Shown: positions 2,904-5,636, numbered from the stretch's first letter. The stretch: DNA of 64,000 nucleotides from Chlamydiia bacterium (GCA_040382515.1 JBEIFH010000003.1:1-64000); one strand, 5' to 3'. Notes: a model not told the origin generated them from the sequence alone. Made by a program: numbers and translations.

Positions 2904-5636
2904 ATGAACACTGTTCTGAGATCGATTTGCCGGTCCCAATCGCATTTGGTTACCGATTATTTGAGGAAGTCGCGTATTCTTAATCCGGGCCAGCAGCTGG
3001 CCGATTTTTTACACACAAATCGACTGGCAGATAAGGGTGAGGGGGTTTATGAGGTGTTTGACCGCTCCACTAAATTTCTGGCCGTTGCCGGAATAAAATA
3101 CTATGGCTCTGCCGAGGCTTCGAACTGGCACTATAAATTCTTGAAGGCCGTTTCGGAATTTAAGGTCATTTTGGGGAGCCCGATGCTGACGAATGCGGGC
3201 AGACGGGAAAAAAGTGTTTCGGCCTGCTCCATTCCGCCGGTCCGGTTGTCTCGGATGCAAAGAGATGAGATTGCCAAAATGGTAGGGGATTACCATACCA
3301 GGGGGATGGGTACCGGATTTTGCCTCGATGATGTGGAAGAGCCCCAGGAGATGGTCCGTTACTTAAACCAAGTTGCCATGTCTGAAGTCCAAAAAGGGAT
3401 GATTGAACGTTCCTGCGGTAACATGGGGGTATTATCGATACACCATCCGAAGGTACTCTCTTTTATCCGTGTGAAGCAAGAGAGTCCCGATATTCAGCAC
3501 TGGAAATTCAACCTTTCGGTCAACATCACCGACGCCTTTATTGAGGCGCTCGAAAAAAACGAACCCTTCACATTGAGCGACGGTCAAAAAGTGGATCCGC
3601 AACTTTTGATGAGTCTGATAGCGGAGCACGCGCATGCTACAGGGGATCCGGGCCTAATTTTTATGGATCGGATCAACCGCCTGAACCGGGTACCGCAAAT
3701 GGGTCGCTACGAGACGGTGGTCCCCTGCGGTGAGGTGTCGCTCTTTTCGGGCGAGGTTTGCCAATTTTCCTACCTGAATCTACCGCAATTTATTGTAGGG
3801 GACAAAATGGATTGGCAAGCCTTGAAAGAGAGCATCCACACCATCATGGTGATTTTGGATAATGCCGTCGAGGTGAATATCGACAGAATGCCGACTCAAC
3901 TGAGTGCCGAAGTGATTTCCAATTTAAGACGTGTCGGTATCGGAATCTGCGGCTTTTCCGAGCTATTGCAGGCAAAGGGGCTCTGTTACGGATCTTTGGA
4001 GGCTCAAAATTTTGCCAAAGAGCTGATGAGTTTCATAAATTTGGAAAGTAAAAGGGCCTCTGTAGAGCTTGCAAAGCAGCGGGGACCTTTTCCATCTTTT
4101 AGAAATTTGAATACCCGTGTAGAGCTTTTCACCAAACCTTTCCAAAAATTCCCCACAACGTGTGCGAGTGAAAAAGATTGGGAGCAGTTAGGTAATGAGA
4201 TCCGAGAGGTGGGTATCCGTAATCTCTCGACAACCATCATCCCCCCAAGCGGAAGAAGTTCTCTCATGGCCGGGTCTAATGCCTCGATAGAGCCCCCATT
4301 TTCACTGGTTGCCGATTCTCGATTGAAAAAGACGCTCGAAACCCATGCCCTCAAAGAGGGATATTTCAACGATTTGGGAGCTGTGTACGATTGCATCGAA
4401 AAAACAGGCAGCCTGCAGCAGTCAGACCTGCCGTTAGCGATCAAGCGGATCTATAGGACGGCTCTGGAAATGACCCCTAATGACCATCTGTCCATGACAA
4501 AAGCGTTTCAATGCCATACCGACGAGGGGATTTCCAAAACGATCAATATGGGTGAAGAATCGTCTGTTGAGGAGGTAAAAAACGTATTTCTTTCGGCGAT
4601 ATCTGCTTCTAATATGAAAGGGGTCACTATTTACAGAAACAATAGCCACCGCTTGCAACCAAAATCCCTATCCACCTCTAGTAAGGATTCTCTTATGTTG
4701 ATCGATTCGATTTACGGCACTGTAAAAATAACGCCTAAAATAGCAAAAATTTTAGCCTCCCCTCTGATGGAAAGGCTTAAAAAGGTCAGACAAAATGGGG
4801 TTGCTTACCTTGTGGACCCTAGACAATCCACATCCCGTTATGATCACTCGGTCGGAACTATGGCGCTCGCTAAAATGCTAGGAGCTTCCGAGCTTGAGCA
4901 GATTCAGGCCCTTTTGCATGATGTATCGCATACCCCTTTTTCGCATCTGATCGACTACGTGTATGGATTCAAAAAACAAGATTACCATGAGAAGCATAAG
5001 ATCCGTTTTCTATCCCAAAAATGGGTCCAAAAAGAGTTGCTAGACTGCGGAATTTCTCTCGATGATCTAAAAGAGCAGAGCCCGACGTTTTTCCAAAAAA
5101 ATGGGATCAATATCGATCGGATCGATTATATGATTAGAGACCTCAAGGCGGTGGGCAAGATCTTTCAGCCCGAGTATTCGATGATACTGAACAACCTTGT
5201 GATAGAGGACAAAAGGATAAAATGCCGCGACATGGGGACAGCTAAACTTTTATTCGATAAATTCCTTGAGGTCAATCAAGAGGTCTATTTCGACCCTAAA
5301 GTGGAGGCAGCATCGGTCGCTTTTACAGCTTTGCTCCAAAAAATGCTCCTTGAGGGACTTTTAAAAGAGGAGCAGTTTGAAAAAAGCGAGGAGGAGCTTT
5401 TGGAGGCGATCAAAAACAGCCCCTACAAAGCTGAATTCGAAGCAATTGGGCCAAACAGCCTCAAGGGTTCTTCTTTACTAAAAAATGGTCGCCCACCGAT
5501 TTTACGCAAACTTCGTTTCATCGATCCTGAAATTCAGGGTTTTGAAGGGACGTTGACAGACCACGATCCAAACGCAAAAGCACGCCTTGAGGAATATCTA
5601 TTAAAAACGCCAAAAGAGGTTTACTATCATGGCTAA
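2904..5636 (+). CDS. divergent class II (NrdJ-like) ribonucleotide reductase domain fused to a C-terminal HD-domain phosphohydrolase
   Basis: RNR motifs SPMLTNAG, SAC108, GMGTG, GNMG, FNLSV, GDPG, VPC275GE, C286, RRVGIG, IRNLSTTIIPPSG, IEP, DEGISKTIN, KGVTIYR. HD motifs RLKKVRQNG, RYDH648SVG, ALLH672D673VSHTPFSH, D738RIDYMIRD. Confidence 0.88.
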   Translation: MNTVLRSICRSQSHLVTDYLRKSRILNPGQQLADFLHTNRLADKGEGVYEVFDRSTKFLAVAGIKYYGSAEASNWHYKFLKAVSEFKVILGSPMLTNAGRREKSVSACSIPPVRLSRMQRDEIAKMVGDYHTRGMGTGFCLDDVEEPQEMVRYLNQVAMSEVQKGMIERSCGNMGVLSIHHPKVLSFIRVKQESPDIQHWKFNLSVNITDAFIEALEKNEPFTLSDGQKVDPQLLMSLIAEHAHATGDPGLIFMDRINRLNRVPQMGRYETVVPCGEVSLFSGEVCQFSYLNLPQFIVGDKMDWQALKESIHTIMVILDNAVEVNIDRMPTQLSAEVISNLRRVGIGICGFSELLQAKGLCYGSLEAQNFAKELMSFINLESKRASVELAKQRGPFPSFRNLNTRVELFTKPFQKFPTTCASEKDWEQLGNEIREVGIRNLSTTIIPPSGRSSLMAGSNASIEPPFSLVADSRLKKTLETHALKEGYFNDLGAVYDCIEKTGSLQQSDLPLAIKRIYRTALEMTPNDHLSMTKAFQCHTDEGISKTINMGEESSVEEVKNVFLSAISASNMKGVTIYRNNSHRLQPKSLSTSSKDSLMLIDSIYGTVKITPKIAKILASPLMERLKKVRQNGVAYLVDPRQSTSRYDHSVGTMALAKMLGASELEQIQALLHDVSHTPFSHLIDYVYGFKKQDYHEKHKIRFLSQKWVQKELLDCGISLDDLKEQSPTFFQKNGINIDRIDYMIRDLKAVGKIFQPEYSMILNNLVIEDKRIKCRDMGTAKLLFDKFLEVNQEVYFDPKVEAASVAFTALLQKMLLEGLLKEEQFEKSEEELLEAIKNSPYKAEFEAIGPNSLKGSSLLKNGRPPILRKLRFIDPEIQGFEGTLTDHDPNAKARLEEYLLKTPKEVYYHG

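Follow-up and report, generated by a model that had tools for sequence, protein, structure and literature searches.

Positions 2904..5636 of a 64,000-nucleotide stretch of DNA from a freshwater chlamydia (Chlamydiia bacterium, GCA_040382515.1, JBEIFH010000003.1:1-64000; the whole stretch at that length is called the window below) carry a single gene in which a class II-type ribonucleotide reductase (RNR)-like domain is fused to an HD phosphohydrolase domain. The RNR-like domain is a member of a deep clade that is without the active-site Asn, without what we take to be allosteric loop 1 and without the redox tail of canonical NrdJ, but keeps the radical and redox cysteines and is almost always tied to one of three unrelated (deoxy)nucleoside triphosphate ((d)NTP) phosphohydrolases. 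We surmise, with about even confidence, that the fusion may work alongside the ordinary RNR of the cell, as an accessory side branch of deoxynucleotide metabolism in which a ribonucleotide is first reduced and its deoxy product then dephosphorylated. The gene is laid out as follows:

2904..5636, + strand: whole RNR-like/HD fusion gene, 910 amino acids (aa) (from the open reading frame, Pfam and full-length orthologous fusions)
2904..4646, + strand: RNR-like domain, class II-type, residues 1-581, an N-terminal all-alpha part plus a ten-stranded barrel (from Pfam, NCBIfam, an AlphaFold2 (AF2) model and the tree)
4647..4688, + strand: linker, residues 582-595, disordered or of low confidence (predicted local distance difference test, pLDDT, below 50 in the AF2 model)
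4689..5633, + strand: predicted SAMHD1/EF1143-type HD phosphohydrolase domain, residues 596-910 (from Pfam HD, PDB sequence matches and the AF2 domain model)

An earlier note on this DNA, made from the sequence alone, had described one uninterrupted 910-aa open reading frame (ORF) with an NrdJ-like half and an HD half of the SAMHD1/Dgt/YwfO-like type, and both descriptions held up: the ORF is unbroken from its ATG to the stop codon at 5634-5636, and Pfam, PDB matches and structure models agree on the two halves. Ribonuc_red_lgC (PF02867) matched residues 147-577 (E 1.6e-71) and HD (PF01966) matched residues 645-698 (E 5.9e-5, 23.8 bits vs. a cut-off of 22), while the AF2 model of the fusion, built from an alignment of 19 fusions, had a mean pLDDT of 86.8 and a predicted TM-score of 0.81, with values below 50 only at residues 582-595. 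A search of 5.8 billion proteins returned approximately 30 protein clusters of 880-976 aa with 41-98% identity to the fusion over the full length, their source labels being "HD domain-containing protein [Chlamydiae bacterium]" or "ribonucleoside-diphosphate reductase alpha chain". The full-length, uninterrupted fusion was also present on nine public contigs of different chlamydial metagenome-assembled genomes (MAGs) (L003-L009, L013 and L015; 52-96% identity), and domain order and linker were kept across the 19 aligned fusions. These data bear on whether two neighboring genes were run together through faulty sequencing, through misassembly, as the earlier note had considered, or through a wrongly called frame; apart from the existence of standalone RNR-like and HD genes in other lineages, we found no support for such an artefact, and the same unbroken fusion in nine independent assemblies and ~30 protein clusters, together with the conserved domain order and linker, refutes it in practice, its probability being negligible. 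The fusion is a real, conserved gene and no assembly artefact, yet it is rare and patchy in the phylum: in a sample of 400 genomes, 10 matched the fusion at E<=1e-40, seven with the full-length fusion (four of four in the window's genus, two in one other family and one in a further family), two with an unfused RNR-like gene and one with an HD fragment at a contig end. Upstream of the gene, Rfam recognized neither a riboswitch nor any other RNA, a transfer-messenger RNA (tmRNA) being the window's only RNA family; promoter-like matches were no better than chance (13 vs. 12.2 expected), and the ESM Atlas gave no usable match.

With regard to the RNR-like domain, NCBIfam ranked the adenosylcobalamin-type NrdJ_Z (TIGR02504) first, at 345.2 bits under an equivalog cut-off of 399.95. 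The nearest solved relative of the N-terminal part was the NrdJ of T. maritima (1xje/1xjk, E ~1e-54), the chains of which were also the top Foldseek matches of the AF2 model (TM-score 0.78-0.79, target-normalised). A first alignment held the fusions, their nearest unfused relatives and seven canonical NrdJ sequences; the signature counts given here compare 77 clade rows with 17 canonical NrdJ rows. In a quick IQ-TREE analysis of these 94 rows, run without five partial loci (L012, L042, L051, L057, L069), class I/class III outgroups and bootstrap, the 77 clade rows were split from the 17 canonical ones with a Shimodaira-Hasegawa-like approximate likelihood-ratio (SH-aLRT) support of 100. Judged by its sequence, the RNR part is no ordinary NrdJ and belongs to a separate clade, the relevant positions of the fusion being:

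3225..3227, + strand: Cys108, first cysteine of the redox pair (C in 77/77 clade and 17/17 canonical rows)
3318..3344, + strand: residues 139-147 (FCLDDVEEP), site of a 14-residue deletion vs. canonical NrdJ (from the alignment)
3720..3734, + strand: finger-loop motif V273-P-C275-G-E277 (VVPCGE placed opposite TNPCGE of 1xjk by HMMER)
3759..3761, + strand: Cys286, second cysteine of the redox pair (C in 77/77 clade and 17/17 canonical rows)
4242..4262, + strand: residues 447-453 (PPSGRSS), the clade form of APTGTIS (from clade vs. canonical row counts)

The earlier note held that the domain keeps its catalytic equivalents, which is correct for the four residues that it named (Cys108, Cys275, Glu277 and Cys286, all invariant in the 19 fusions) but not for the Asn. 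The thiyl C275, the catalytic E277 and the redox pair of C108 and C286 (equivalents of E. coli C225/C462) occur in 77/77 clade rows and the class II-marking Pro (P274 here) in 76/77, whereas the Asn two residues ahead of the thiyl Cys, which is N in 17/17 canonical rows, is missing clade-wide, with A in 65, V in 10 and S in 2 of the 77 rows and Val273 in this position of the fusion. Of the N-P-C-x-E signature (E. coli N437, P438 for class II, C439 and E441), the fusion retains all but the Asn. The PASV preprint (10.1101/2021.01.20.427478) terms N437, C439, E441 and C462 "essential for RNR function" and discards sequences without these residues. In the last barrel strand, a single Tyr is followed by Arg, as in class II NrdJ.

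The 14-residue deletion comes after GMGTGF, where canonical NrdJ reads SRLRPxGDxVxxTxGxxSGP, and from the alignment we take the deleted stretch to be most of allosteric loop 1. On the same grounds we presume that a second stretch, which is remodelled in the clade (xGxIERPVGNMG vs. canonical KQGGxRRGANMG), corresponds to loop 2. Loop 1 is the specificity site according to the preprint by Burnim et al., and we infer that the allosteric specificity site of canonical NrdJ, comprising loops 1 and 2, has not been retained by the clade. Ten further signature columns set the clade apart from canonical NrdJ, and a clade insertion of ~25-30 residues lies ahead of IRNxST; M135, G172, Y269, F288, Y290, C349 and E541 are also signature residues, and Y269, F288, Y290, C349, R451 and E541 are the clade's own invariant residues. 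The APTGTIS motif, which in canonical RNRs holds the substrate phosphates, is altered as well, with P447 in 77/77, R451 in 77/77 and S452 in 76/77 clade rows vs. A, T and I in the canonical ones. At the C-terminus, neither the fusions nor the unfused clade members have a Cys pair or zinc finger, as opposed to the CxxC-type tails in which the canonical rows end; C-terminal cysteines have a role in re-reducing the active site, as stated by Loderer et al. (2017). In two nanohaloarchaeal loci, a 115-aa acidic protein with two CxxC pairs is encoded directly upstream of the RNR-like gene (L046:5607-5954 and L052:5494-5841), and this protein might correspond, as a separate polypeptide, to the Cys-rich redox tail that the clade is missing. 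When small upstream ORFs were screened as candidate redoxins, CxxC pairs were found only in this protein, with nothing comparable in chlamydiae.

The second domain is predicted to be a SAMHD1/EF1143-type HD dNTP triphosphohydrolase with an intact set of active-site motifs, of which two stretches are:

4845..4922, + strand: HD metal/catalytic motifs, H648 (RYDHSVG) to H672-D673 (LLHDVSH) (invariant in 19 fusions; aligned to SAMHD1 motifs)
5115..5129, + strand: DRIDY (D738-Y742), distal Asp motif of the HD site (aligned with SAMHD1 DKWDY)

Among PDB sequences, the C-terminal part is nearest to 6pwy (C. elegans SAMHD1 orthologue), 2q14, 2hek and SAMHD1. Modelled alone (AF2), the HD domain had a pLDDT of 91.1, and the top Foldseek matches of this model were Rhizophagus SAMHD1 9mr6 (E 5e-11), E. 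faecalis EF1143 (4lrl/2o6i with TMq 0.75, and 3irh) and 2hek. The motifs RLKKVRQNG (624-632), RYDHSVG (645-651), LLHD (670-673) and DRIDY (738-742), which had been picked out from the sequence in the first place, were recovered and are invariant in the 19 fusions, as are H648, H672, D673, D738, D741 and Y742; the H...HD...D metal-ligand set of dNTPase-type HD domains is therefore complete in the fusion. Standalone and fused HD proteins are orthologous and have a C-terminal RKLRYxDP motif in common, the standalone relatives making up an unnamed family (~30 clusters, 320-335 aa). When the unfused RNR-like (600 aa) and HD (324 aa) proteins of locus L043 were submitted to protein-protein prediction, the scores were 0.00 and 0.00, which, obtained without controls, count neither way. 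The window's genome also contains, on contig C5:2191-2502, a fragment of a second SAMHD1-like HD homologue with 31% identity over the N-terminal 89 residues.

The association with a hydrolase extends well beyond the chlamydial fusion. A scan of one genome per species yielded 71 clade loci, hosted by Chlamydiota, Berkiella and other Gammaproteobacteria, many members of the candidate phyla radiation (CPR)/Patescibacteria, Babeliaceae (Dependentiae), Woesearchaeota, Nanohaloarchaea, Micrarchaeota, a Methanosarcinales MAG, Aminicenantes, Bacillota, a Croceitalea, many Pseudonocardiaceae, Actinomadura and Nocardia. Neighbors were annotated with Pfam and then used as tblastn seeds against all clade loci; as four of the 71 loci end 100 nt or less past the gene, 67 were evaluable. 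A hydrolase homologue (HD, NUDIX or CYTH) lies within 2.5 kb in 61/67 loci and is fused to the RNR-like gene or is its immediate neighbor in 48/67. An HD partner is present in 16 loci (fused in nine, a separate gene in L014, L043, L046, L052, L055, L064 and L065), NUDIX alone in 33, and CYTH in 12, together with NUDIX in three of these. Single-ORF fusions exist with NUDIX (L017; P0043 and P0045 by precomputed Pfam) and with CYTH (L044) as well; L019 and L032 were rejected as RNR-NUDIX fusions and are regarded as adjacent genes, their long ORFs (naive ORF calls, high-GC) being in another frame than the RNR match. By way of control, 13 canonical RNR loci of 11 carrier genomes, taken with 5 kb on either side, had NUDIX (E<=1e-5) in 1/13, with HD and CYTH in none. 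The NUDIX partners are nearest to MutT, NudG (pyrimidine (d)NTP diphosphatase) and NudI, all under NCBIfam cut-offs, and the CYTH partners to the class IV adenylate cyclase CyaB, one of them (L053, 7539-8120) above the CyaB cut-off. On the RNR tree, the partner label, of which there are seven, changes at least 23 times, and this repeated switching fits interchangeable roles in removing the phosphates. The chlamydial fusions form one clade (support 100); its sister group contains one further fusion (P0032) besides forms from Berkiella, Gammaproteobacteria and metagenomes that are not fused, and the HD-operon forms L014 and L043 come next (support 99).

Carriers of the clade generally have an ordinary RNR besides. 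The window's genome (1.39 Mb, 92.65% complete) encodes a strong class I-type NrdA adjoining NrdB on contig C12, plus dUTPase and ThyX; overall, 10/11 carrier genomes have a full-length canonical RNR besides the clade gene, the exception being a 0.8-Mb nanohaloarchaeal MAG, and NrdB was found in 8/9 chlamydial carriers, whereas NrdD was found in 0/5 carrier genomes tested. This complement, together with the hydrolase coupling, speaks for the proposal of the earlier note that the fusion serves a dedicated route rather than housekeeping dNTP supply. Replacement of dUTPase as the sole rationale was rejected, since dUTPase is encoded in the window's genome and in 4/5 other carriers tested. One could also envision a built-in homeostat, in which a general ribonucleotide reductase without allosteric specificity control is coupled to a dNTPase that trims overshooting dNTPs, in the manner of eukaryotic RNR plus SAMHD1. 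The mostly deleted loop 1 and the loop 2 remodelled clade-wide are consistent with this scenario, as are the HD fold, which is that of the dNTP-pool regulators SAMHD1 and EF1143, and the nanohaloarchaeal MAG, in which the clade member is the only RNR found, with PduO present and an operon containing Tmk, a kinase, HD and dCMP deaminase. Nevertheless, we consider a homeostat unlikely: a canonical, presumably regulated RNR is already at hand in 10/11 genomes, the compact 315-aa HD domain is much shorter than SAMHD1/EF1143, NUDIX and CYTH enzymes are not known to regulate pools, and the loss of the Asn would be left unexplained.

The identity of both domains, the signature of the clade, its hydrolase partners and its coexistence with a canonical RNR are borne out by the data, and on them we base a conjectural scheme of reaction order, phosphate level, base specificity, cofactor and physiological purpose. 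In this reduction-then-dephosphorylation scheme, the RNR-like domain would reduce a ribonucleotide, probably a triphosphate, with a specificity that is probably fixed and not effector-switched, and the attached hydrolase would strip the phosphates from the deoxy product. An HD partner would give rise to deoxynucleoside plus triphosphate, a NUDIX partner in the relatives to deoxynucleoside monophosphate (dNMP) plus pyrophosphate, or a CYTH enzyme would act instead. The deoxy product would thereby leave the dNTP pool, to re-enter at the nucleoside or monophosphate level via dedicated kinases, for instance in the service of monophosphate-level pyrimidine/thymidylate-type conversions or pool trimming, and not of bulk dNTP supply. 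We favor this scheme on the following grounds: 1) removal of the phosphates of the deoxy product is the simplest common denominator of partner families that all act on nucleoside tri-/diphosphates, interchange and are sometimes fused; 2) the loss of loop 1 points to a fixed specificity; 3) the partners prefer triphosphates and the phosphate-binding motif has an extra invariant Arg, both of which suggest that the substrate is an NTP; 4) neighbors resembling dTMP/dNMP kinases, NudG and dCMP deaminase hint at pyrimidine/thymidylate-type traffic.

As for the cofactor, a PduO- or CobA-type corrinoid adenosyltransferase is encoded in 9/10 non-chlamydial carriers, its gene adjoining the canonical RNR in two of them (G002 and G005), and the nanohaloarchaeal MAG with the clade member as its only RNR is among the genomes with PduO. 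A number of observations weigh against the scheme: 1) PduO-/CobA-type adenosyltransferase was found in 0/9 chlamydial carrier genomes (MAGs 87-100% complete), which leaves the source of the presumed adenosylcobalamin unexplained, and the window's genome has no Peripla_BP_2 or B12-binding domains; if the RNR-like domain is adenosylcobalamin-dependent, chlamydiae must get the finished cofactor from the host, and otherwise there must be another radical source; 2) the RNR-like domain may not reduce nucleotides at all, because the Asn treated as essential in the PASV preprint is missing; 3) turnover is unexplained, given that chlamydiae have no C-terminal redox tail or obvious redoxin partner; 4) no hydrolase lies within 2.5 kb at 6/67 loci (L010, L011, L022, L024, L067 and L072), and the hydrolase-less loci include the Berkiella/gammaproteobacterial sister group; 5) the three hydrolase families yield different products, and the common denominator of the partners may be destruction instead of a defined intermediate; 6) one chlamydial fusion (L015:1757-2686), which lies outside the 19-fusion alignment and is also without the downstream adenylate-kinase-like gene, has a degenerate HD motif, with FREASQPVFSQ instead of LHDxSHTxFSH, and the hydrolase of this lineage may be inactive; 7) the module does not simply stand in for dUTPase; 8) the two kinases encoded behind the chlamydial fusion belong to other families than the kinases of CPR/DPANN loci and are apparently exported, making them a poor fit to a simple cytoplasmic pathway.

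Some of these points would equally suit a protein that is no reductase, be it a pseudo-enzyme serving as nucleotide-binding regulator or scaffold, or an enzyme with other chemistry, such as a radical dehydration that halts at a keto-deoxy intermediate, or with a different radical initiator. Consistent with such a protein are the "essential" Asn absent from 77/77 clade rows, the missing redox tail, the lack of B12 adenosylation genes in 9/9 chlamydial genomes and the score below the NrdJ_Z equivalog cut-off; herpesviruses are reported to have inactive RNR homologues with new roles. However, the thiyl Cys, the Glu and the redox Cys pair are invariant in a deep bacterial/archaeal clade, which argues for retained redox-radical chemistry, one carrier is without any other RNR, and 9/10 non-chlamydial carriers have an adenosyltransferase. 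We therefore think a non-reductase quite improbable and adhere to a reductase coupled to a phosphate-stripping hydrolase.

In chlamydiae, the fusion is followed by two kinase genes:

5629..6582, + strand: choline/thiamine-kinase-like (APH fold) kinase (Pfam APH and Choline_kinase; its start overlaps the fusion stop by 8 nt)
6572..7312, + strand: adenylate-kinase-like nucleoside monophosphate kinase (Pfam ADK, E 4e-26; the ORF opens with TTG at 6542, the likely start being ATG at 6572)

The nearest solved relative of the APH-like kinase is the LicA choline kinase 4r77 (E 2e-27), its NCBIfam scores all being below cut-off, and the ADK-like kinase reached 138.1 bits for the adk subfamily vs. a cut-off of 168. 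The ADK-like gene overlaps the preceding APH-like gene. Whereas genes upstream of the fusion vary among the chlamydial loci, the APH-like gene follows it in 9/9 (one copy being L005:4248-5198), with the ADK-like gene next in 8/9. By eye and hydropathy, the N-terminus of the APH-like kinase is hydrophobic and signal-peptide-like in the window and in 7/7 readable orthologues; that of the ADK-like kinase, MRFSILFFFLCPFFFPFVSA, is signal-peptide-like too, with hydrophobic N-termini in 7/7 readable orthologues. It is in any case unusual for a chlamydia to have an adenylate-kinase paralogue that is exported, and a second Adk homologue, with 33% identity, is found on contig C5:32437-33012 of the window's genome. 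Because both following kinases carry export signals, the later steps in chlamydiae would probably take place outside the cytoplasm. The same N-termini on two conserved downstream kinases lend some indirect support to an idea of the earlier note, namely that the fusion might be making and releasing a deoxynucleoside. Carried further, this would give a split pathway in which the cytoplasmic fusion turns an imported host ribonucleotide into a free deoxynucleoside and Sec-exported kinases re-phosphorylate it outside; a class II-like radical enzyme in genomes without recognizable B12 handling would imply either scavenged adenosylcobalamin or a new radical initiator. We deem such a pathway decidedly unlikely. 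If true, outside could mean the periplasm, the inclusion or the host side, bacteria would have a route for delivering or re-importing deoxynucleotides across compartments, and the clade would be a functionally new RNR relative whose product is meant to exit the dNTP pool.

Kinases recur among the neighbors of the clade in general. P-loop kinases are common near clade genes and are nearest to dTMP kinase (54.7-76.8 bits vs. a cut-off of 83.25) or to the kinase half of an anti-phage dCTP deaminase (below cut-off), one of them being fused to CYTH (L050:3579-4793); dCMP deaminase (L046), Ham1 plus PfkB kinase (L064) and uridine kinase (L011) are each neighbors at a single locus. Small GreA/GreB-like genes also recur (L014:9276-9743, L043:9521-10024, L045:8362-8898 and L020:4007-4492), and the module may move as a block. 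Such a gene occurs even in the Methanosarcinales MAG, although Gre factors of bacterial type would not be expected in an archaeon. In most loci of actinomycetes, an XRE-type helix-turn-helix (HTH) gene is transcribed divergently, often with a peptide-deformylase-like C-terminus: in L025, L030, L031, L033 and L040, a divergent HTH-deformylase gene of ~500 aa lies upstream on the opposite strand, the HTH being without a deformylase match elsewhere.

Some of these neighbors raise the question of whether the module is a weapon, draining nucleotides or making a non-canonical or toxic deoxynucleoside(tide), against phages in free-living carriers or, in chlamydiae, against the host compartment, where the exported kinases would re-phosphorylate the released nucleoside. 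The patchy, accessory distribution (10/400 phylum genomes matching), the XRE-type HTH regulator diverging from most actinomycete copies, and the caspase/VWA, CdiA-tRNase or AbiEii genes that are sometimes nearby are in keeping with a conflict role. So are the resemblance of some partner kinases to the kinase half of the anti-phage dCTP deaminase and to the PADLOC candidates PDC-M51B and VakA, the signal-peptide-like N-termini of both chlamydial kinases, the remodelled active site, and the pairing of a radical enzyme with a Tmk-family kinase, which recalls viperin/CMPK2. However, PADLOC recognized no family, at E<=0.001, for the fusion, the two kinases or five further window neighbors, and lent no support to the anti-phage defence suggested in the earlier note; furthermore, many of the copies in CPR/DPANN have housekeeping genes around them (RNA polymerase subunit, adenylosuccinate synthetase, GreA-like), no toxin-immunity or sensor component was recognized, and viral contigs yielded only a single distant relative, with 25% identity, in one IMG/VR scan. 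A conflict role is, in our estimate, of low probability. A phage origin was dropped on the basis of the same scan.

Elsewhere in the window we noticed several other genes. Eukaryote-type Ser/Thr kinase genes lie at 13622-14803 and 15205-16140, and in two related chlamydial loci (L004:4744-5922 and L005:73-1263) the gene immediately preceding the fusion encodes a similar kinase. A 135-aa ORF with a MYND zinc finger, which is typically eukaryotic (24035-24442), adjoins the tmRNA gene (24607-24994, minus strand), and a bacteriocin-type export cluster, comprising two ATP-binding cassette (ABC) exporters, one of them of the C39-peptidase type, and an HlyD-like gene, occupies 53661-59614 (minus strand). 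ORFs without a Pfam family include five consecutive ones of 319-386 aa on the same strand (36673-41811) and one of 973 aa (10265-13186) that also has no PADLOC family; those at 7291-8493, 8655-9272 and 9451-10206 are likewise without family.

The earlier note knew of no described RNR-HD fusion, and in the open full-text literature (paywalled papers and RNRdb being outside the scope) we likewise came across no RNR described as fused to, or linked with, an HD, NUDIX or CYTH enzyme, nor any account of a class II-like clade without the Asn; a term look-up in three RNR phylogeny/structure papers returned no mention of an RNR-HD/NUDIX/CYTH linkage. Both component families are known, but the reductase-like clade and its pairing with hydrolases are apparently undescribed. 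RNR is among the best-studied enzymes, yet homologues without the N/C/E/C signature are discarded by pipelines as non-functional, as the PASV preprint indicates (10.1101/2021.01.20.427478); it counts 286 of 29,401 RNRdb representatives without an essential residue, and clade members may sit unremarked among those 286 entries. Should the clade prove to be active, the part ascribed to the Asn in catalysis would have to be reconsidered, and there would be an RNR type without allosteric specificity control as well as, in microbes that depend on a host, a new branch of deoxynucleotide metabolism. The fusion in chlamydiae poses two testable questions, i.e. where the radical originates without B12 genes and why the kinases are exported.

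Of the known systems, class II NrdJ (T. maritima 1xje and 3o0o) has the same fold at 25-28% identity and has the Pro of P-C-x-E and the redox Cys pair in common with the clade. In contrast to NrdJ, the clade is without the Asn and most of loop 1, reads PPxGRSS for APTGTIS, has no Cys tail or zinc finger, and has an insertion of ~25-30 aa, the invariant C349 and E541 and a coupled phosphohydrolase. The HD domain, in turn, has the fold of the SAMHD1/EF1143/Aq_1910 dNTPases and their RLxxxxQxG, RxxHS, HDxxHxPFSH and DxxDYxxRD motifs, but at ~315 aa (vs. 370-630 aa) is fused behind an RNR-like enzyme and has its own RKLRYxDP motif. The pathway of phage T4, comprising RNR, dCTPase/dUTPase, dCMP deaminase, thymidylate synthase and dNMP kinase, follows a similar logic, with the RNR product taken to the monophosphate, modified and re-phosphorylated, and the neighbors of the module include dTMP/dNMP-kinase-like, NudG/MutT-like and dCMP deaminase genes; unlike in T4, the module is found in cellular genomes, with a divergent class II-like paralogue as its RNR and hydrolases of other families, and there is no consistent base-modifying enzyme. 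Viperin is paired with CMPK2, and prokaryotic viperins with nucleotide kinases, so that here, too, a ribose-acting radical enzyme is paired genomically with a Tmk-family kinase; viperins, however, are radical S-adenosylmethionine (SAM) enzymes of a different fold, and we saw no sign of a chain-terminator product. Lastly, the oxetanocin A genes encode OxsA, an HD phosphohydrolase, and OxsB, a B12-dependent radical enzyme, which resemble the module in joining an HD phosphohydrolase to a cobalamin-type radical enzyme that acts on a deoxynucleotide to release a nucleoside. OxsB, on the other hand, is a B12-dependent radical-SAM enzyme and no RNR homologue, and the Oxs genes reside in a plasmid antibiotic cluster, whereas the module looks like housekeeping in many phyla.

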